A DNA stretch of 10,021 nt from Prevotella sp. (lineage in GTDB: Bacteria; Bacteroidota; Bacteroidia; Bacteroidales; Dysgonomonadaceae). This document shows, in pieces, positions 1,879-10,021 of this stretch. Position numbers and translations under genes: made by a program. The stretch is from NCBI GenBank assembly GCA_031285625.1, contig JAITVV010000003.1, positions 1-10,021 on the forward strand, written 5' to 3'. The notes below the pieces were generated by a model. The model searched no databases. It worked only from the letters and a program-made list of their open reading frames with translations, and was not told the origin of the DNA. The stretch's first letter is position 1, and each line of letters starts with the position of its first letter.

Positions 1879-2424
1879 ATGAATTTAGAAGTTAATCCTC
1901 AAGCAATCGAACAATCATTTGATAGAATCGCCAAAGAATTATTAATTGAAAATGCTTTGTATATAAATGATAAAGTATTCCGATTTACAGAAATAGAATT
2001 TTACTATTATAATGAAGAATTCCACCCTGATAAATACACACATGAACATTCTTTAAAAGAAGGACAATGGCGTTTCCATAATCAAGGTATTGATATTACA
2101 TTCAATAGTGATGACAATCTCCAAATAGACGGAGGCATTTTAATAAGAGGAGTTTTATTAGACAAAAAATATATTAATGGACCAAGAAAAATAATAACTG
2201 CATTTTTCGAAGCATTTGGAAATATAACAGATAATACAAACTTTATTTTGAAAAGCAGCGAAAAAAGAGATGTTGAAATTATTAAAACATTTAGGCAATT
2301 ACCCAATAAAATAGAATATCCTATATATCATGAAAAACATTATCGATATATCGCAGAAATAGAAAAAGTTAAAATTTCGAGTAGTATTAAAGATGCTATT
2401 TTAAAAGACTATCAAAATCTATAA
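1879..2424 (+). CDS. Divergent methylpurine-DNA glycosylase (AAG/MPG)-like protein
   Basis: Motifs occur in the MPG family order: IAKELL (~VARDLLG), FRFTEIEFY (~GRIVETEAY), D-x3-H (DKYTH ~ DPASH), GIDIT (~LNIV), GGILIRG (~AVLIRA), INGPRKI (~TNGPGKL). Aligned by eye only. Confidence 0.6.
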   Translation: MNLEVNPQAIEQSFDRIAKELLIENALYINDKVFRFTEIEFYYYNEEFHPDKYTHEHSLKEGQWRFHNQGIDITFNSDDNLQIDGGILIRGVLLDKKYINGPRKIITAFFEAFGNITDNTNFILKSSEKRDVEIIKTFRQLPNKIEYPIYHEKHYRYIAEIEKVKISSSIKDAILKDYQNL

Positions 2425-2504
2425 TAATCAAATTTGCATTGTATTTCTATTTTAGCTATATTAAGCTAATAGTATATATCATTATTGAACTTTTAATTGT
2501 AACT

Positions 2505-3542
2505 ATGATAGATAAAATTGTATTTTATGTAAATGATGTGGATATAGACGTTTTGGAAAAACACCTAACAAGGCAGAAGATAATAAAAGATGAGTTAGCT
2601 GCTGTAGCCTTAGATAGAGAAAGAGACATCTTTAAATATGGCGTAACCCTAAAAAGAGCAATAGTCCTAAAAGTTTCTTTAGAAAAAAAGAAGGGGGCTA
2701 AAGAAAAGCACTGGAAATTGAGTGGGCATGGCTCGCTTCATAAGTTTGTACAAGGAGGAAACCATGATAGATTTAATGCAAGCGAAGCAATTAAAGCAAT
2801 TATTGAACTTGGCGAAATATTGGGCATTTCTTTAGACCGTATTATAATTACGTGTTTAGAAATCGGAGTAAACTTACAAATGCCTAAAGAACCAATGAAA
2901 TATATAGACAAGGTTCGTTCTCATGGCATAACAACAAAAAGAGCATTTATTCACATGAGGCCTCTTAAAGACACTCCTCATTTACGAGGGAAACTATGCC
3001 AATATACCTATTATGTAATTAAATTTTATGATAAAACATTTGAAGCAGAATATTATAGGAAGAAATGGTTGAAAAAATATAAGGCAGAAGGTATCCCTAT
3101 ACCTGTTATACGTAAGAATATTTTACGATACGAAATAGAACTGCATCCAAAGAAATTTCCAGCATTAGGCTTTCAAAATATAAAAGCCTCAACCTTCACA
3201 GCAGAAAAACTATTAAATCATCGCTTCTACTCAAGATTTGTCAAAATGTTAGAAGATGTTTTTCAGAAAACAGATCTTGTAGATTTGAGTAATATTCATC
3301 ATGAAAAATCGCTTGATGAAATAAAAAATTATATATTTGTAACATCAGACAGCTATAATCTATATCTTGACTATTTAAAGGATATTCTTGAGAAGAATGA
3401 TTATAACAAAGCAATAAGAGACGATAAAGCTTTAGCGAAAGAATTTAACTTTGTAAAACATACTGAAAGTATCAAAGAGCTAAAGGCGATTTTTGAAAAA
3501 GAAATAGACTTAGTTTACGATACTAGAAAACACAGCAAATAA
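2505..3542 (+). CDS. Putative replication initiator protein (Rep_trans / phage gII-X-like) of the integrated element
   Basis: Preferred start is the ATG at 2505 (MIDKIVF; 345 aa) rather than the TTG at 2439. Motifs MIDKI, GSLHKF..G.NH..F, ITCLEIGVN, IKFYDK and LRYEI follow the order D...RxD/E...YxK...RxE seen in this initiator superfamily. Basic protein. Confidence 0.55.
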   Translation: MIDKIVFYVNDVDIDVLEKHLTRQKIIKDELAAVALDRERDIFKYGVTLKRAIVLKVSLEKKKGAKEKHWKLSGHGSLHKFVQGGNHDRFNASEAIKAIIELGEILGISLDRIIITCLEIGVNLQMPKEPMKYIDKVRSHGITTKRAFIHMRPLKDTPHLRGKLCQYTYYVIKFYDKTFEAEYYRKKWLKKYKAEGIPIPVIRKNILRYEIELHPKKFPALGFQNIKASTFTAEKLLNHRFYSRFVKMLEDVFQKTDLVDLSNIHHEKSLDEIKNYIFVTSDSYNLYLDYLKDILEKNDYNKAIRDDKALAKEFNFVKHTESIKELKAIFEKEIDLVYDTRKHSK

Positions 3543-3672
3543 AATTCCACAGAATACAAAAAACACAACTTTTCCCATATCTAATAAGTAGGAATAATTA
3601 ATATTATTACATAAATAGAAATAATAATAAATAGACAAGATGAAATAAAAGAGAGTTATTGTTTTGAATTAT

Positions 3673-3680
3673 TATCTTTG
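3673..3680 (+). promoter_or_regulatory. Bacteroidota sigma-A -7 box for the four-gene cassette
   Basis: TATCTTTG matches TAnnTTTG exactly and lies 35 nt upstream of the ATG at 3716 in an AT-rich intergenic gap. No canonically spaced -33 TTTG is visible. Confidence 0.55.
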
Positions 3681-3715
3681 CTATTAATTATTAATTAATC
3701 GTCCTTTAACGTAAA

Positions 3716-4801
3716 ATGATAAACTCTTTCTTTGTTTTTGGAAAAGGAGATATAGAGATTGAAAGATTCCATCTCTGTACATGGGATTTGTCAAATTGTA
3801 ATTCTTTTATCGAGATTGGTGCCGAGATAGACCAAAATAAATATTTTGAAAAAAACAATAATCATGTAATTGAGTTAACTATTGCAGCCCCAATCTTATC
3901 AGAAATTACTAATGAGGACAACGTCATTTGCTTAGCAAAACGATTAGCTCAAAGTGAAAACAGCAAATTTATTTTCAATGATTCTTTAAAAAGTTGGTCT
4001 GAGATACAAGAAGATAGTCGTAATGGAGTTAATCTATCTTTTGTTGAAAGAGAAGAGTTGACAATTTTACCGATTGAAATACTTAAGTTAAGCGATAAAG
4101 GTTATTTAACCATATCTATAGAAGTTCCAGAAAATGCCAATAAATGGGTGTATTTTAGAATTCTAATAAAAACAAATTCTAAGACCTTAGCTCTTCCCAA
4201 AAAGGGAATTGCATCATCAAAATATATTTTTGACATAAGAATTAATGAACAACGGAACTTATCGGATATTATTCATGATGCAATAAAAAGAGAACACTTG
4301 AAAATCTGTAATATTAGAACATATTTTTGTTTTCATATAGTCCCTAATACATATGAAATATCTTTTGTTGATGATGATAAGTTGAATAGTGTTAGAATGT
4401 TAGAGACAGAGTTGTTTAAAAGATATTTAGCTGATGACATTGACCAAAAAATAGAAAATAAAAAATATCTTATTGCCTTTAACAAGTGGGAGAATAAGAA
4501 GTATCCAGATCAAAGGAAAGGATGCTCATTCTTTTCTATTTTTAAACAGGAGAGACTTGGAACAGGGCAGATTGTATTAGCTATAGGTGCTAATATTTTA
4601 TGCTCTTTATTGTTTGCATCGGCAGCTTTCAGAAAAGAACAGGGATATATGCAAAATATAGAGGGATTCGAAAGTTGGTATAGAAAGATGCCTATTGAAT
4701 ATTGGATTGCATTTTCAATCTTGATTGCATTATTTGTTTATCTTATTCCCATTAAAAAGTTTATATCAAAATTATTTTATATCTTTAAAAAGAAGAAATA
4801 A
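3716..4801 (+). CDS. Hypothetical protein: ~280-aa soluble, probably beta-rich domain plus two C-terminal TM helices
   Basis: 361-aa ORF with no signal peptide. Hydrophobic segments IVLAIGANILCSLLFASAAF and YWIAFSILIALFVYLIPI are followed by a Lys-rich tail, consistent with a cytoplasmic C-terminus. Confidence 0.7.
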   Translation: MINSFFVFGKGDIEIERFHLCTWDLSNCNSFIEIGAEIDQNKYFEKNNNHVIELTIAAPILSEITNEDNVICLAKRLAQSENSKFIFNDSLKSWSEIQEDSRNGVNLSFVEREELTILPIEILKLSDKGYLTISIEVPENANKWVYFRILIKTNSKTLALPKKGIASSKYIFDIRINEQRNLSDIIHDAIKREHLKICNIRTYFCFHIVPNTYEISFVDDDKLNSVRMLETELFKRYLADDIDQKIENKKYLIAFNKWENKKYPDQRKGCSFFSIFKQERLGTGQIVLAIGANILCSLLFASAAFRKEQGYMQNIEGFESWYRKMPIEYWIAFSILIALFVYLIPIKKFISKLFYIFKKKK

Positions 4802-4846
4802 ATATGATTTAATAAACTATCATTTCTTTTTTCTCGTTATTATTAT

Positions 4847-5356
4847 ATGAAAACAATAGTCATTGATAAGCATTTTTTCGATTCGCATATGAAAGATTTT
4901 TTCTTTTTTATGCCACTTATTTTTAATGCGCTATCAGATTTAGAAAATGAATACCCCTATTTTGGGAAATGGCTATTGCAAGTCTTTGACGATATTCCAG
5001 CTAAAAAAAGGAGTATTATATTAAAGCTTTATAATGAACAAATTATAGCAATTTCTATCGTAAAGCATACAAAGCAAGAAGAAAAGATATCAACATTCAG
5101 AGTATTTCCTAAATATAAAAGACTCGGAATAGGTTCTGAATTGATGGAGGATTCTTTATATTATTTAAAGAATGATTCTCCAATGATTACTGTATCAGAA
5201 AAAAGAATCTTTGAGTTCAGTTCATTTTTAACAAAACTGAAATTTGAGAAAACACAAGAAATACCATCATGTTATATTCAGGATATTTCTGAGCATATTT
5301 TTAATGGAAAATTAGAAAAAGAGGAAACACCAAAATATTTCTACTTTTACGAGTGA
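4847..5356 (+). CDS. GNAT-family N-acetyltransferase
   Basis: Canonical acetyl-CoA-binding motif A in ISTFRVFPKYKRLGIGSELM (R-x-G-x-G), followed by the ITVS strand and FLTKLKF (motif B-like). Confidence 0.85.
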   Translation: MKTIVIDKHFFDSHMKDFFFFMPLIFNALSDLENEYPYFGKWLLQVFDDIPAKKRSIILKLYNEQIIAISIVKHTKQEEKISTFRVFPKYKRLGIGSELMEDSLYYLKNDSPMITVSEKRIFEFSSFLTKLKFEKTQEIPSCYIQDISEHIFNGKLEKEETPKYFYFYE

Positions 5357-5435
5357 GAAAATATTAAGAAGTTTAAATTTATTTATCTATATAGAAATAA
5401 TGATAAATTTCTAATTATCCTTAGAATATAATTTA

Positions 5436-6956
5436 ATGAAAATATTACTTGATACTAATATTATAATCCATCGAGAAGCAAATAGAGTCTCAATCCCAGC
5501 AATAGGACAACTTTTTTATTGGATAGATAAATTGCATTATACAAAATATATTCATCCTATAACTATTCAAGAATTGAATAAATTTAGAGATGCACAAGCT
5601 GTTGATGTAATGAATATAAAGATTGAAAGCTATAATAAAATAAAGAATATTGCTTCAATATCAGATGTAGTTCAAAAAATCAGTCAAAAAATAGACTCAA
5701 ACGAAAATGATATAAATGATACCCAAATTCTAAATGAGGTTTATGAGGGACGGATTGATATTCTAATATCCGAAGATAAAAAGATACATACAAAAGCCTC
5801 TTTATTAAACATTCAAGACCGAGTATATAAAATACAAGGGTTTCTTGAGAAAGTTATATCTGAAAATCCCGAATTAGTGGATTACAAAGTACTAGCTGTT
5901 CAGAAAACCGATTTCGCTAAGGTCAATATTAATGACAGTTTTTTTGATAGCCTTCGTGCAGATTACAAAGAATTTGATAAATGGTTTAATAAAAAAGCTG
6001 ATGAGCCATGCTATGTTTGTTATGACAACAACATATTAACAGCCTTTCTGTATGTTAAGGTTGAAGCAGAAGATGAAAACTATTCAGACTTTATCCCGAT
6101 ATTAAAAAGAAAAAAACGGCTTAAAATTGGAACTCTGAAAGTTTCGGGCAATGGTTATAAAATTGGGGAACGTTTCTTAAAAATAATTTTTGATAACGCA
6201 ATTCAATATAAAGTTGAAGAAATATATGTAACTGTTTTTAATAGAACGCCTGAACAAGAACAGTTAATAGAAATGTTGGAAGAATGGGGTTTTATTTACC
6301 ATGGGGTAAGAGAGTCCTCTAATGAGAAAGAATTAGTATATACTCGTGCTTTTAACAAGACGTTACCAGTAAAAGTTGAATGTCCAAAATTAACTTATCC
6401 TTTCTTTTCAAGAGATACAGATAAATATATCATTAAAATTGAGCCACAGTATCATACAGAGCTTTTCCCAGACAGTATAAATACGAGAGAAGATGCAAGC
6501 CTTTATGTTGATAATGAGCCTCATCGTAATAGAATTGGGAAAGTATATATCTCTCATTCTAAAGATAGAAATCTAAAAACTGGAGATATAATTTTAATAT
6601 ATCGAATTGGGGAGACTCTCCCTAAAATATATTCAAGTACTTTAACTACTATTTGTATTGTGGAGAATGTTATAGAGAAATTCGACTCTTTTGAAAGTTT
6701 CTATCAAGCCTGTAACCGCCGGACTGTTATCAAGAAAAATGATTTAGAAAAAAATTGGTGGAATAAATATCCCTCATATAGACCTTTTGTTATAAATTTC
6801 TTGTATGCCTTTTCTTTTAAAACTCCTAAGCCAACTTTGTATGATTTGAATTGTTTAGGTGTCATACCTGACATTAAAAATATGCCAAAAGGGTTTATAA
6901 AAATAACGAATGAGGAGTTTAATAAAATTGTTAATTTTGCATACCGTAAAAAATAG
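5436..6956 (+). CDS. PIN-GNAT-PUA-like (EVE/ASCH-like) three-domain fusion protein
   Basis: N-terminal PIN domain with acidic residues in ILLDTNII, IQEL, NDTQI and ISEDK. Central GNAT (LKIGTLKV..NGYKIGERFL, IYVTVF, LEEWGF). C-terminal PUA-like region (IKIEPQYHTELFP, KVYIS, LKTGDIILIYR, TTICIVE, PKGFIKIT.EEF). Confidence 0.8.
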   Translation: MKILLDTNIIIHREANRVSIPAIGQLFYWIDKLHYTKYIHPITIQELNKFRDAQAVDVMNIKIESYNKIKNIASISDVVQKISQKIDSNENDINDTQILNEVYEGRIDILISEDKKIHTKASLLNIQDRVYKIQGFLEKVISENPELVDYKVLAVQKTDFAKVNINDSFFDSLRADYKEFDKWFNKKADEPCYVCYDNNILTAFLYVKVEAEDENYSDFIPILKRKKRLKIGTLKVSGNGYKIGERFLKIIFDNAIQYKVEEIYVTVFNRTPEQEQLIEMLEEWGFIYHGVRESSNEKELVYTRAFNKTLPVKVECPKLTYPFFSRDTDKYIIKIEPQYHTELFPDSINTREDASLYVDNEPHRNRIGKVYISHSKDRNLKTGDIILIYRIGETLPKIYSSTLTTICIVENVIEKFDSFESFYQACNRRTVIKKNDLEKNWWNKYPSYRPFVINFLYAFSFKTPKPTLYDLNCLGVIPDIKNMPKGFIKITNEEFNKIVNFAYRKK

Positions 6957-6961
6957 CTAAG

Positions 6962-7363
6962 ATGAAAGTTGTATTATCAATAAAACCAGAATTCGCATAT
7001 AAGATATTTGATGGAACCAAAAAATTTGAGTTCCGCAAATCAATTTTCAAGAATAGTAACATTGAAACTGTTGTTGTTTATGCCTCGTCTCCAGTAAAGA
7101 AAGTTATAGGAGAGTTTCAAATAGAACGAATCTTAAATTATGATTTAGATACTTTATGGGAGTTAACGAAAGAATATTCAGGTATATCAGAAGATTATTT
7201 TTATGAATATTTTGATAACCGAGAAACTGGCTTTGCAATACAGATCAAAAGTAAAATAAAGTTCAAGCAGCCTAAGAGTCTACAAGAAGATTATAAAATA
7301 ATAACTCCACCCCAATCTTTTGCTTATTTAAGTAATCAGGATAAACTTGAGGCTGTTATTTGA
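6962..7363 (+). CDS. ASCH domain protein
   Basis: Signature LSIKPEFAYKIFDGTKKFEFRK (G-x-K-x-x-E-x-R), VVVYASSP..KVIGEF and C-terminal PPQSFAYL. Starts 5 nt after the PIN-GNAT stop. Confidence 0.9.
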   Translation: MKVVLSIKPEFAYKIFDGTKKFEFRKSIFKNSNIETVVVYASSPVKKVIGEFQIERILNYDLDTLWELTKEYSGISEDYFYEYFDNRETGFAIQIKSKIKFKQPKSLQEDYKIITPPQSFAYLSNQDKLEAVI

Positions 7364-7897
7364 TAACTTACTATATTGATTAGATAATTTAGAGTCTAGC
7401 TTAGTGACAGAATTATATTTCTGTAATAAGTCAAAATACAGCAATTCAAACGCACAAGCATCTATATAATCTACAAATTTTCGATAGCCCGAAATAAATT
7501 GGCAATTAGTCATTGATATAAAATGCTGGATATTTTTTTCCGAAGTACGCATAGTAGAGCAACTCCCGAAGTGTACGACTTTACCTTTTAATTTACCCTC
7601 TATAGCTGTTGCAATCTCTTTTAGTGTTATGTATTGGTTTTCTACTATAATTCGATTTGTACGTCCATGAAATGCTAAATACAAAACAGAATAGTTTTTA
7701 TAATTTCCTTTTGTAAATTGCTGTAAGCGGTAAAAGAATTCTTCTTTAGTATCGCATTTATGATAAATATATTTTATCCCTTTAAAAGTACGGAGTAATT
7801 CAAGCATTGGCTTTACACTTTGATTGCTTCGTGGATTCTTATTCCAGTTGCCCTCTAAACAATAAATATTTCTGTCGTATGTCTTTATATCACTCAT
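7328..7897 (-). CDS. DUF6642-like protein with caspase/CHAT-type His-Cys dyad motifs
   Basis: Motifs IYCLEGNW, VLYLAFHG, VVHFGSCST and ISGY. The strand-HG ... strand-SC arrangement is typical of clan CD peptidase folds. The ATG overlaps the recombinase TGA (ATGA at 7897-7894). Confidence 0.7.
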   Translation of the reverse strand: MSDIKTYDRNIYCLEGNWNKNPRSNQSVKPMLELLRTFKGIKYIYHKCDTKEEFFYRLQQFTKGNYKNYSVLYLAFHGRTNRIIVENQYITLKEIATAIEGKLKGKVVHFGSCSTMRTSEKNIQHFISMTNCQFISGYRKFVDYIDACAFELLYFDLLQKYNSVTKLDSKLSNQYSKLSNNSLKFILIT

Positions 7898-8791
7898 AGT
7901 GTAATATCGCTAAATACGTTATAAAAACGCGGCAAATCCTGCTCCCTTATTATCTCGTCATTATAGACCTCTAGCATTTGAATGCTTCTATGACGGCTAT
8001 ATTTAGAAACCGTCAGTAATTCGCCTTTGTAAGACTTTATCAATTTGGTTATAAAAAAATGACGGAAGCCATGGGTACTTCCGTCAATATTTAGATCATT
8101 TAGAACTTTCTTTATTATCTCTCGTATGGATTTAGTTGTTAGCCTGCTACCCGAAGAGAAATTGCTTCCACTTCGGAATAAAGCGCCTTCTCTTATTCTA
8201 TTTGTATGTAGGTATTCTTTTAAGATTTTAATTGTTGCAGGGTGTAAATGTATCAATTCTTTATCGTCTTGTCCTTTTCCGATAATGAAAGCCGTTTTTA
8301 TCTTTCAGGTTAATATCGGTAACGTTCAGCCTTGTTATTTCTACTTGGCGCAGTCCTTGAAAAATAAGCAGTGATAAAATAGACTTTAACCGTAGATTCT
8401 GAATAGTGGGTTCTAACGAAGAACAATAATTTACAATCTTAGAAATATCCTCATCGCAAAGACCATCTTTTTTATGGAGCTTACTTTGTTTAAATCCTCT
8501 TACTTTCGTATTAATCTGAAAAGGGAATTGCTGTAAGTTATTCAGACCGTCAATAAAAATCTTAGCGGAAATCAGATACTTATTTTTTGTAGAAACACTT
8601 AACGTGTCGATAGAACTTAAATAGCGTTTATATTCTAAATAAGTATTGGGATTAATTCCATGTAATTTTACAAAATGGATAAAGTGTTTAATTCGGGTCA
8701 GGTACTCTTTTCGTGTATTTTCTGTAACATCTATACAATCAAAAATACTGTTCTTTAACTGCGAAACATCATTGTAATTTACTAACTCCAT
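7894..8791 (-). pseudogene. Tyrosine recombinase/integrase, frameshifted (real lesion or sequencing error)
   Basis: ORFs 8261-8791 and 7894-8256 join into one 298-aa protein if a single base is removed from the T5 run at 8295-8299, giving ...DINLKDKTAFIIGKGQDDKELIHLHP... All catalytic motifs are present: GLRQVEI (R), GKG (K), HGFRH (HxxR), SRH (H), VYND (Y). Confidence 0.9.
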
Positions 8792-8862
8792 AGTTATAAT
8801 TTAGTGGTTATTTACTAAGTAATTACTTGAAGTTACTAAAAATATCTTATATTTGCAAATAC

Positions 8863-8885
8863 AAACACCTAATTATGAGGTGTTT
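8863..8885. repeat. Perfect 8-bp inverted repeat upstream of the recombinase (operator or recombinase-binding candidate)
   Basis: AAACACCT (8863-8870), 7-nt spacer, AGGTGTTT (8878-8885). Confidence 0.55.
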
Positions 8886-8927
8886 AGCTATTAATCATCT
8901 AAATGTTTAACCTATGTTTACCCACCT

Positions 8928-8968
8928 AAAAAGAAAAAACGCTGTAATCTATTCAATTACAACGTTTT
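8928..8968 (-). terminator. Rho-independent terminator downstream of the tRNA 3'-end copy
   Basis: The minus strand reads AAAACGTTGTAAT-tgaatag-ATTACAGCGTTTT-TTCTTTTT. This is a 13-bp stem whose only mismatch becomes a G-U pair on the minus strand, followed by a U-rich tail, 15 nt after the tRNA end. Confidence 0.75.
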
Positions 8969-8983
8969 ACAATTTCATTTCAG

Positions 8984-9003
8984 TGGTGCCACCAGGAATC
9001 GAA
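8984..9003 (-). mobile_element. att core: duplicated 3' end of tRNA-Phe (T-loop to acceptor end)
   Basis: The minus strand reads TTCGATTCCTGGTGGCACCA, i.e. T-loop, 3' T-stem and 3' acceptor stem, matching the Bacteroidales tRNA-Phe 3' end as I recall it. Upstream sequence (9004 onward) gives no D-arm, anticodon arm or 5' acceptor strand (GGTGCCA), so this is a fragment and not a gene. Confidence 0.85.
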
Positions 9004-9171: not shown

Positions 9172-10021
9172 TTATTTTTCTATATGTAAGCGAAGTTTCT
9201 CTATTCCGGCTGCAAATTTCTTGGGATTGCTTGCTTTCAGTTTCAATATGTTTTGTAACTTCCATTTTACTGATGGATGGTCTCTCAAATCACCGGCACA
9301 GCATTTATCCCATTCCGGTTCTCCTGATTCAAAGGATAGTAAAAACTCTTTGTCTGCTTCCGACAACATGTGGTTTATGTCTGAAATCAATTCCAAGCGT
9401 GTGGATTCATAATCTGTGTATGAAAAAGGGATGTCTGTCATTCCTTCAAATTCCTGTTCCAAAGCCTTTTTCTGATCTATCAAATTAGGCTGTAACGATT
9501 CAACAATGGGTTTGTCGCTTCCCAAAAGAGCATAGAACAATCCATCTTTCACCTCTTCAAGCAATTCGAGCGGCATGTACTTACAATCGAAAAGGTCGCG
9601 CGGATGTTGCCGGCTAAGTGCAGCCGATATTTTACCTCCATACAGTTGCGAAAACGAAACAGTCCTTGCACGACAAATCATACTGAATTCTATTTGAGCT
9701 TTGAGGCAAAGTTCTTTATCTTCCGTAGTACCAATAATCCCTCGCTTGGTACCGTTGACTTCTATTTTTACCGTTGCACCATCTTTCAAACATAGTAGTT
9801 TCCAAACATCCGGTTTGTGAGTAATGCGAATACCCGGAATCGTTTTTTCTATCATCTGTTTAAGCTCTATCAGATAGACATTGATTGCCTGTAAACTGTC
9901 ATCTCGCCCTTTGAGGGGAATGTATGTAATATCTATATCGACCGAATAACGAGGCATCTCTTTATAAAACAGATTGATGGCTGTTCCTCCATGTACGGCA
10001 AAGTCAGCTATCCGATATACC
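9172..10021 (-). CDS. abiEii: AbiEii/AbiGii-family nucleotidyltransferase toxin (type IV TA / abortive infection), 5' end outside window
   Basis: The frame stays open upstream of Met 9957 to the window edge: VYRIADFAVHGGTAINLFYKEMPRYSVDID, containing the GGTA...R.S.DID Pol-beta NTase signature. Also KIEVN and GKISAALSRQHPRDLFD (K...R...RDxxD). Confidence 0.92.
   Translation of the reverse strand, partial: VYRIADFAVHGGTAINLFYKEMPRYSVDIDITYIPLKGRDDSLQAINVYLIELKQMIEKTIPGIRITHKPDVWKLLCLKDGATVKIEVNGTKRGIIGTTEDKELCLKAQIEFSMICRARTVSFSQLYGGKISAALSRQHPRDLFDCKYMPLELLEEVKDGLFYALLGSDKPIVESLQPNLIDQKKALEQEFEGMTDIPFSYTDYESTRLELISDINHMLSEADKEFLLSFESGEPEWDKCCAGDLRDHPSVKWKLQNILKLKASNPKKFAAGIEKLRLHIEK

Follow-up and report, generated by a model that had tools for sequence, protein, structure and literature searches.

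Gene organisation of the locus

The stretch of DNA described here (the window) is one entire contig of 10,021 bp from a Prevotella sp. assembly (GCA_031285625.1, contig JAITVV010000003.1), with a GC content of 30.7%. Its central part, positions 3716–7363, holds a cassette of four co-oriented genes, which encode a predicted membrane protein (gene 1), a GNAT-like protein (gene 2), a protein with predicted PIN, GNAT and PUA-like domains (gene 3) and an ASCH protein (gene 4) (Table 1). The cassette has a GC content of 28.6%, compared with 37.0% for the genome, and the coordinates of the open reading frames (ORFs) give gaps of 45, 79 and 5 nucleotides (nt) between genes 1 and 2, 2 and 3, and 3 and 4, in agreement with an earlier reading of this DNA from its letters and ORFs (the original prediction).

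Table 1. Features of the window and of the proteins encoded in it; positions are counted from the first base of the window, and domain limits come from structure models.
Feature	Position	Strand	Description
367-residue upstream gene	2439–3542	+	No Pfam or PHROG match; in the conserved block
TATCTTTG, Bacteroidota −7-type promoter box	3673–3680	+	Motif match; 35 nt upstream of the gene 1 ATG
Gene 1	3716–4801	+	ORF, 361 residues
Gene 1, predicted β-rich (β-sandwich) domain	residues 1–280	+	Model
Gene 1, predicted membrane helix 1	residues 283–308 (4562–4639)	+	Model
Gene 1, predicted membrane helix 2	residues 327–343 (4694–4744)	+	Model
Gene 2	4847–5356	+	ORF, 169 residues
Gene 3	5436–6956	+	ORF, 506 residues
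Gene 3, PIN/VapC-like nuclease domain (predicted)	residues 1–134 (5436–5837)	+	Best match 4chg_A (VapC15), Z 12.8, root-mean-square deviation (rmsd) 2.8, 125 aligned
Gene 3, GNAT-like domain (predicted)	residues 148–309 (5877–6362)	+	Best match 5hh1_A (Naa60), Z 14.4, rmsd 5.3, 165 aligned
Gene 3, PUA-like (ASCH/EVE-type) domain (predicted)	residues 327–503 (6414–6944)	+	Best match ZmASCH 5guq_A, Z 12.8, rmsd 2.8, 140 aligned
TAATTTTG, second −7-type box	6932–6939	+	Motif match; 22 nt upstream of the gene 4 start
Gene 4	6962–7363	+	ORF, 133 residues
DUF6642 gene	7328–7897	−	PF20347, E 2.8e-38; convergent with gene 4, 36-nt overlap
Tyrosine recombinase	7894–8791	−	Split into two ORFs by an extra T in a T-run, ~8295
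tRNA-Phe(GAA) 3′-end copy, 21 nt exact	8983–9003	−	Attachment-site remnant at the element end, beside the integrase
AbiEii-type nucleotidyltransferase toxin gene	9172–10020	−	PADLOC AbiEii, 6.9e-92; interrupted by the contig end

The position of the −7-type box at 3673 is suggestive of a gene 1 promoter, and merely suggestive because the motif occurs in the window at chance level (20 copies, against 15.8 ± 4.2 in shuffled sequences); a properly spaced −33 TTTG was not seen on reading the sequence upstream of it. Four further plus-strand copies lie within the cassette, at 4225, 4322, 6012 and 6932, and the last of these could act as an internal promoter of gene 4. Given these internal copies and the chance-level frequency of the motif, the earlier picture of a cassette behind one TAnnTTTG box is unsupported, whereas the absence of an internal terminator that was described along with it agrees with a terminator scan, in which no terminator-like site was found on the plus strand of 3716–7363. 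An Rfam search of the window returned no RNA family. In one RNA library run, which contains 21% of the sampled sequence words, short contigs at ≥99% identity cover parts of the upstream gene, gene 1 and gene 3, and one contig spans the junction of genes 3 and 4 (6869–7065). This signal is weak evidence of expression, as DNA carry-over is possible, and the absence of contigs on gene 2 and several other stretches does not imply that these are silent.

Conservation of the gene arrangement

Genes 3 and 4, adjacent and on the same strand, match both models of the PADLOC candidate PDC-M11 over their full length, gene 3 as PDC-M11A (PDLC04422, E 1.1e-203, residues 1–504 against profile positions 1–494 of 501) and gene 4 as PDC-M11B (PDLC04425, E 5.8e-53). 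PDC-M11 is a two-gene candidate, and neither gene 1 nor gene 2 has a model in it. The original prediction had put forward an undescribed defence system and had named a match to a described one as a result that would speak against it; a PADLOC comparison, which it had proposed, identifies genes 3 and 4 with a catalogued candidate, and for this half of the cassette the claim to be undescribed falls away.

Two sets of loci define which genes belong together. The first consists of 48 loci with a gene 3 relative, taken from one-genome-per-species contigs, and the second was gathered by a search of metagenomes with a profile of 70 gene 1 homologues, from which the best 80 of 185 stretches were kept. 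Because the loci were collected through relatives of gene 1 or gene 3, the fractions given below are conditional and are not census figures; the adjacency counts omit the genome-search loci L130–L140, because some of these are not oriented with the match on the plus strand.

Gene 4 directly follows gene 3 in all 48 gene 3 loci, which makes the two genes an obligate pair. Gene 1 is missing in 46 of these loci and is present in two, namely L002, the near-identical locus of Dysgonomonas sp. 511, which is also the sole gene 3 locus with gene 2 (1/48), and L041, from a Bacillota-labelled metagenome-assembled genome, in which a gene 1 of 36% identity abuts gene 3 and gene 2 is missing. Seen from gene 1, gene 3 is found in 77 of the 80 metagenome loci, or in 79 of 82 when L002 and L041 are added, and gene 2 in none of the 80. 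Among the 82 loci, gene 1 abuts gene 3 in 68, is separated from it by one inserted gene in nine, follows the pair in the order gene 3–gene 4–gene 1 in two, and lacks gene 3 in three. Two of these three stretches end 41 and 220 nt past gene 1, and the third (L111) is a truncated copy beside type I restriction genes, as read from N-terminal sequence only. Of the two loci in which gene 1 comes last, one (L124, 3778–9214) lies near a viperin-like radical SAM gene and genes for several TIR proteins of the Thoeris type, and the other (L094, 5731–8091) lies beside a TIR-NLR gene.

Where genes 1 and 3 abut, their spacing is mostly −4 to +19 nt and resembles that of translationally coupled genes. When the gene 1 loci are dereplicated into 57, 29 or 15 clusters (at about 90, 70 and 50% similarity), every cluster includes a locus with gene 3, and gene 1 also stands alongside forms of gene 3 that lack the PIN domain (L094, L106 and L124). 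In a quick tree of gene 3 (116 rows), the sampling of which is biased by how the loci were found, gene 1 loci occupy at least six places, and the window and L002 are nested within a 40-row clade that is otherwise without gene 1 (support 100). An AAA_17 nucleoside triphosphatase (NTPase) abuts gene 3 in 18 of 40 loci without gene 1, compared with none of the 79 gene 1 loci, and a Pfam search found no AAA_17 ATPase in the window. Gene 1 needs the pair, and the pair does not need gene 1; the membrane protein is an accessory component that is nearly always found beside the pair, in the upstream position that is elsewhere taken by AAA_17.

The slot between genes 1 and 3 is occupied in nine loci, by an HNH_5 endonuclease in L050, L125, L126, L127 and L129, a PIN_12 protein in L115, a 164-residue protein of no family in L073 and L075, and, as in the window, gene 2 in L002. 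Within this variable slot, the stand-alone GNAT-type gene 2 is a rare, lineage-limited insert. Of 5.8 billion proteins, those in its family fall into just 10 clusters, with identities of 70% or more throughout, and in seven of the nine other clusters the longest contig has the same size as that of a gene 1 homologue, a coincidence suggestive of a constant association of gene 2 with gene 1. The view of the four genes as one system, to which a check of conserved gene order had been attached, is therefore upheld only in part: order is conserved for genes 3 and 4 and for gene 1 with gene 3, and the membrane protein belongs with the pair as had been proposed, but gene 2 falls outside the conserved arrangement, and the four-gene unit as such does not stand.

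A stricter view would make genes 1 and 2 independent neighbours, a separate small set of defence or cargo genes beside a true unit that consists of genes 3 and 4 only. The two-gene definition of PDC-M11, the lack of a convincing PADLOC match for genes 1 and 2, the absence of gene 1 from 46 of the 48 gene 3 loci and the use of the gene 2 slot by unrelated genes are all consistent with this view. For gene 1, however, independence is contradicted by its co-occurrence with gene 3, by the close spacing, by the existence of two gene orders and by the recurrence of the association in at least six gene 3 lineages, and as an account of both genes we regard it as highly improbable; gene 2 on its own may be independent.

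Predicted structures and activities of the encoded proteins

The AlphaFold model of gene 3, built on a 22-sequence alignment (predicted local distance difference test score (pLDDT) 83.6) and compared with 48,161 solved chains, divides into the three domains listed in Table 1, and the domain architecture assigned in the original prediction stands, both for the folds within gene 3 and for the ASCH family of gene 4. Pfam gives a PIN_3 match only, below the cut-off. In the predicted PIN domain, the acidic residues D6, E46, D92, D95 and D114 are invariant among the 22 sequences, and the domain superposes on VapC toxins of the VapBC systems with Z scores of 12.1–12.8. The GNAT-like domain (residues 148–309) resembles many other GNATs by fold and matches phrog_13728 at 6.9e-20; in the 22-sequence alignment, it carries N-G-x-x-x-G-E-R in place of the GNAT loop R/Q-x-x-G-x-G/A. 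A non-canonical loop has been noted for the family by Matelska et al. 2017 (PMC5499597), the accessible text of which adds that activity may be lost. The C-terminal domain has a PUA-like fold, the best solved-structure match of which is an ASCH protein, and its likeness to gene 4 appears from the model to be at the level of fold only.

Gene 4 belongs to the family of the Zymomonas ASCH protein (ZmASCH), with an E value of 2.4e-14 as a single sequence and 3.6e-23 as a profile, both over the full length, and it aligns end to end with ZmASCH (PDB 5GUQ/5GUS). Its GxKxxExR motif is intact (G18, K20, E23 and R25), and in an alignment of 41 sequences, K20, E23, R25, Y40, P117, Q118 and S119 are invariant and G18 is nearly so. 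According to the part of the literature on ZmASCH that was accessible, this protein is an Mg-dependent single-strand RNA nuclease in which Tyr47 and Ser128 were mutated; these residues are retained in gene 4 as Y40 and S119. The accessible text of a 2026 preprint reports that ASCH proteins, GxKxxExR types included, are tRNA N4-acetylcytidine (ac4C) deacetylases, that the Lys and Glu of the octapeptide are essential for the removal of ac4C from tRNA, and that TthASCH needs this dyad. The octapeptide of the ac4C amidohydrolases YqfB and TthASCH, GxK-x-x-(E/T)-x-R with its catalytic Lys and Glu/Thr, is also present in gene 4, the conserved residues of which correspond to those mutated in TthASCH and ZmASCH. 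The reported activities differ, with ZmASCH acting as a single-strand RNA nuclease and YqfB and TthASCH as deacetylases, and gene 4 may have either activity or neither.

Gene 1 has no match in Pfam, NCBIfam, PADLOC or PHROGs, and its homologues form 348 representative clusters. In its model (70-sequence alignment, pLDDT 90.8), the β-rich domain is followed by a hairpin of two predicted membrane helices and a lysine-rich C-terminal tail, and the soluble domain would be cytoplasmic, because the protein has no N-terminal signal-like segment. The best fold matches are the β-sandwich of ribophorin I/OST1 (Z 10.7, 189 aligned residues, rmsd 3.9) and the N-domain of M1 aminopeptidases (Z 8–9); these matches (Z 8–11) span the β-sandwich only, and no function can be derived from them. 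Foldseek against the PDB returned only matches with template modelling (TM) scores ≤0.33, to ribophorin and pentameric channels, a BFVD search returned only giant-virus proteins at TM ≤0.32, and the ESM Atlas returned only unnamed neighbour clusters. Relatives of gene 1 and gene 2 were not found among IMG/VR viral contigs.

Gene 2 matches GNAT families below the Pfam cut-offs (E 7.6e-5) and retains a K-x-x-G-x-G loop in the alignment. It also matches phrog_13728 (3.8e-7), the same PHROG acetyltransferase family as the GNAT-like domain of gene 3, and an hhalign comparison of the two gives a probability of 46% (E 2e-4), which is suggestive, although not proof, of a specific kinship between them.

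Distribution and genomic context

Gene 3 has matches in 11 and gene 1 in none of 400 other genomes of the phylum, and gene 2 has none in 400 other genomes of the class. In a word-filtered search, the gene 3-type pair is found in more than 4,800 protein clusters, and it occurs in about 3% of sampled Bacteroidota genomes. Relatives without the PIN domain are carried by lambdoid and other phages (16 phage records, with those of E. coli phages at 36.5% identity), and plasmid relatives account for 33 records. In four Flavobacterium loci (L003, L004, L005 and L022, at about 900–13500), an AAA_17–gene 3–gene 4 trio lies each time in the same neighbourhood, among cysteine-desulfurase-like and ABC-ATPase-like genes that we read as suf genes, a setting that is unexpected for a supposed defence system.

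The loci that contain gene 1 lie in defence islands, which bears out the defence-like context described earlier for the window. A PADLOC match at E ≤ 1e-8 lies within 6 kb of 17 of 20 representative gene 1 loci. Five of the 20 (L053, L054, L064, L070 and L074) are situated between hsdM/hsdS and hsdR of a type I restriction–modification (RM) system, and other gene 1 loci have as neighbours AbiE, AbiL, Thoeris TIR, TIR-NLR and viperin-like genes, type II/IIG RM systems and several PDC candidates.

Relation to described systems

The PDC-M11 models originate from genes that lie within BREX, DISARM and type I RM systems, according to the accessible text of the preprint of Payne et al. 2024 (10.1101/2024.01.29.577857), in which 145 PDC candidates, not experimentally tested there, were described and added to PADLOC; the main text, as far as it was accessible, does not name PDC-M11. 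The same kind of operon had been described before. Matelska et al. 2017 (PMC5499597) report, in the accessible text, a ‘PIN-GNAT-PUA’ architecture in PIN_15/PIN_17 proteins, accompanied by another PUA gene and, in some cases, an ATPase, and the accessible text of Bell et al. 2020 (PMC7641849) describes ‘(PIN)-GNAT-EVE’ proteins with ASCH and AAA_17 near type I RM systems as predicted toxin–antitoxin systems. Neither main text, as accessible, mentions a membrane partner, and the word ‘transmembrane’ has 0 occurrences in that of Bell et al. 2020.

The likeness of these operons to the cassette lies in a three-domain protein followed by a separate PUA-like or ASCH protein, in the existence of forms without the PIN domain and in an optional AAA_17 ATPase, and the loci gathered here reproduce the ASCH partner, the PIN-less forms and AAA_17. 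The described operons have AAA_17 or nothing where the window has genes 1 and 2, and the EVE label given to their C-terminal domain has no counterpart in a Pfam EVE match for that of gene 3. For the idea that nucleic acids are acetylated, both papers cite Iyer et al. 2013. That such neighbourhoods had been noted in comparative genomics and that no validated system is matched, as the original prediction stated, is in line with the descriptions of 2017 and 2020 and with the literature, in which we found no validation.

An annotated phage counterpart exists in Escherichia phage PhiR47_2 (GenBank PV340567.1), in which the genes for a GevT toxin and a GevA antitoxin lie between cI and kil. GevA is 50% identical to gene 4 (E 3e-44), and GevT is 37% identical to residues 160–502 of gene 3 (E 2e-59); the two are adjacent and co-oriented like genes 3 and 4. 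In the phage, GevT has no PIN domain, and counterparts of genes 1 and 2 are missing. GevT and GevA are names given in the annotation of the record, and a literature search yielded no paper that describes them; Gev is not mentioned in the paper that names the PhiR47 phages, and the main text of DefensePredictor contains no ASCH, GNAT or PUA.

Toxins with either a PIN or a GNAT domain are familiar from other systems, and a known class of GNAT toxins, which is cited in the accessible text of Bell et al. 2020 (PMC7641849), acts by acetylating aminoacyl-tRNA. Unlike in the VapBC, TacT and AtaT systems, the partner here is an ASCH protein and not an antitoxin of the VapB, ribbon–helix–helix or helix-turn-helix type, and no ORF or family match for a VapB-type antitoxin is found in 3543–7363. 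Membrane-anchored components are also known from defence systems, such as the 2TM effectors of CBASS, KwaA of Kiwa and ZorAB of Zorya. Their resemblance to gene 1 would be one of action only, that of a membrane partner to a cytoplasmic module directed at nucleic acids: no relation to gene 1 in sequence or fold was found, and the cassette lacks the cyclase, KwaB and ZorCD partners.

The mobile element that carries the cassette

Positions 2494–9003 of the window are 98.8% identical to scaffold29 of Dysgonomonas sp. 511, and 121–1830 are 89% identical; the remainder is not alignable. The shared block contains the 367-residue protein, the cassette, the DUF6642 gene and the tyrosine recombinase, and this comparison shows the cassette to be part of a small element that carries an integrase and lies at a tRNA-Phe site. 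The ‘tRNA-associated island’ of the original prediction is correct in part, for although ARAGORN finds no tRNA gene in the window, a 21-nt tRNA-Phe end lies beside the integrase. At the position of this fragment, the Dysgonomonas locus has the complete tRNA-Phe(GAA), located after the recombinase. The full tRNA-Phe of the present genome is found on contig C47 (681–2220), beside another integrase-like gene of 417 residues (called from its N-terminal sequence), and because a fragment of the tRNA lies here and the full gene lies there beside a different integrase-like gene, we infer that tandem islands are stacked at one tRNA site. The 367-residue protein could possibly be a rolling-circle replication initiator or a mobilisation protein of the element, for which its nearest ESM Atlas clusters (score 0.97), with Phage_CRI in 10–16% of their members, provide a lead only.

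The cassette differs from that of Dysgonomonas sp. 511 at 3 of 3648 positions, compared with 28 differences in the Rep-like gene, 15 in the recombinase gene and about 70 in the whole remainder of the 6.5-kb block. This contrast with the rest of the block suggests that the cassette either has passed between elements recently or is under far stronger constraint.

This setting also suits a plain addiction module that acts to stabilise the tRNA-Phe element and not against phages, in which gene 3 would be the toxin, gene 4 the antitoxin and genes 1 and 2 passengers or modulators. Residence within a small integrase-bearing element, the toxin–antitoxin-like label given to the family in published predictions, the annotation of the phage pair as GevT toxin and GevA antitoxin and the far better conservation of the cassette than of the rest of the element all speak for such a role. 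However, gene 1 loci are often found within operons of type I restriction systems and next to Thoeris, AbiE, AbiL and TIR genes, a setting typical of defence genes and not of genes that maintain an element, the phage copies occupy the accessory-gene position between cI and kil, and toxin–antitoxin and abortive-infection roles are not exclusive; a pure addiction role is rated as unlikely, though by no means far-fetched.

Proposed function and its significance

The explanation that is best supported, with a probability of roughly 0.6, is that positions 3716–7363 hold a membrane-protein-bearing variant of the (PIN)-GNAT-PUA plus ASCH (PDC-M11) module, a toxin–antitoxin-like defence system carried on a tRNA-Phe element. 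Each step of the mechanism that follows is a proposal. Genes 3 and 4 would form a toxin–antitoxin-like abortive-infection or defence module in which gene 3 is the effector: its PUA-like domain may recognise a nucleic-acid feature, and its PIN domain, with the acidic residues intact, would cut RNA, while the GNAT-like domain may acetylate a nucleic-acid or aminoacyl-tRNA target or may have turned regulatory. Gene 4, which keeps the Lys/Glu dyad of the ac4C amidohydrolases, would restrain gene 3, either by erasing a mark or as a competitor for the same RNA. Gene 1 would anchor the module on the inner side of the membrane and could serve as an envelope sensor or as a second, membrane-directed effector. 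Gene 2, with its G-x-G loop intact and its probable place in the gene 3-type GNAT subfamily, may be a source or a modulator of acetyltransferase activity in this lineage.

Several observations weigh against this explanation. The defence and toxin–antitoxin roles are deduced from context and from a GenBank annotation, and no experimental test of any member of the family was found in a literature search that lacked most subscription journals. The proportion of gene 1 loci with a PADLOC neighbour has no random-locus baseline, and the fractions are conditional, since gene 1 served to collect one set of loci and close relatives of the gene 3 copy in the window the other. Acetyl transfer by gene 3 is doubtful, because the R/Q-x-x-G-x-G/A loop (motif A) of canonical acetyl-CoA binding is absent, and with it the ‘two writers’ that had been seen in the two GNATs become doubtful as well. 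The C-terminal domain of gene 3, taken alone, has no Pfam EVE or ASCH match, lacks the GxKxxExR motif in the alignment and, in a profile comparison with gene 4, reaches a probability of 1.3%. The association of the other gene 2 homologues with gene 1 is deduced solely from matching contig sizes.

The nearest clade of gene 3 also counts against a defence role. Its members, of the Flavobacterium type and 63–70% identical to gene 3, occur in a syntenic housekeeping context with suf genes, and their loci show few credible defence neighbours; the PADLOC ‘hits’ there are cysteine desulfurase and ABC ATPase proteins, which we read as suf housekeeping look-alikes. A cellular role in RNA metabolism agrees with this setting at least as well. 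On such an account, genes 3 and 4 would be a cellular RNA-modification pair, in which a GNAT-PUA writer and an ASCH eraser of tRNA or rRNA ac4C are carried on a mobile element by chance and are not immune genes. It gains from the report, in the accessible text of the 2026 preprint, that ASCH proteins of the GxKxxExR type are tRNA ac4C deacetylases, from the retention of this motif in gene 4 and from the spread of the Flavobacterium-type clade across families beside suf genes. Against it stand the sporadic distribution (11 of 400 genomes), the non-canonical GNAT loop of gene 3, and the fusion to PIN, the phage-borne forms, the embedding in restriction systems, the low GC content and the mobile context, which point to conflict, and a housekeeping role for the pair in the window is considered quite unlikely.

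A bolder version of the defence explanation is a membrane-coupled, three-component immunity based on acetyl marks, in which a GNAT (gene 2 or the domain of gene 3) would write N4-acetyl marks, the ASCH protein would erase them and the PUA-like domain would read them, and in which gene 1 would sense injection or envelope stress and either switch on the PIN domain or collapse the membrane. We judge this version to be very doubtful; if it were true, it would amount to a reversible acetylation-based self/non-self or alarm system without a described counterpart.

The significance of the toxin–antitoxin-like defence explanation lies less in a new kind of system than in an organised lead into a known unknown, the PIN-GNAT-PUA/ASCH pair being common and having been flagged in 2017, 2020 and 2024. 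What is new here is that a membrane protein is a faithful partner of the pair in one large branch, a link that was not found in the main texts of the papers searched, that this protein alternates with the AAA_17 NTPase in the same position, and that the junction of the membrane protein with the pair serves as a hotspot at which additional nucleases or a GNAT are inserted. This offers a concrete experimental handle, as forms with three or four genes can be set against the form with two, and the link of ASCH proteins to ac4C deacetylation suggests a specific chemistry to look for.

Neighbouring genes and other features of the window

The DUF6642 gene was considered as a member of the cassette unit and rejected, as it lies beside the cassette in L002 only, among the loci examined. 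The recombinase, intact in the Dysgonomonas sp. 511 copy (297 residues), is split in the window either by a real inactivating frameshift or by a homopolymer sequencing error. The AbiEii gene was likewise rejected as part of the unit: the near-identical Dysgonomonas locus has no such gene, and in the window it is found on the far side of the tRNA-Phe fragment, which assigns it to a neighbouring segment; the earlier placement of the cassette next to an AbiEii gene is right as to the presence of the gene, but the gene is not on the element of the cassette. Its AbiEi partner would lie past the contig end.

An ORF of 181 residues at 1879–2424 on the plus strand has no Pfam match. L002 has about 2 kb of other DNA in its place (2030–4057), which encodes a PIN-domain protein and a 322-residue protein. 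The site of this ORF, on the left edge of the shared block, is thereby a second spot that varies. Bases 1–25 of the contig recur reversed near the end of contig C20 (~53238), which is probably an assembly-graph overlap or a repeat.

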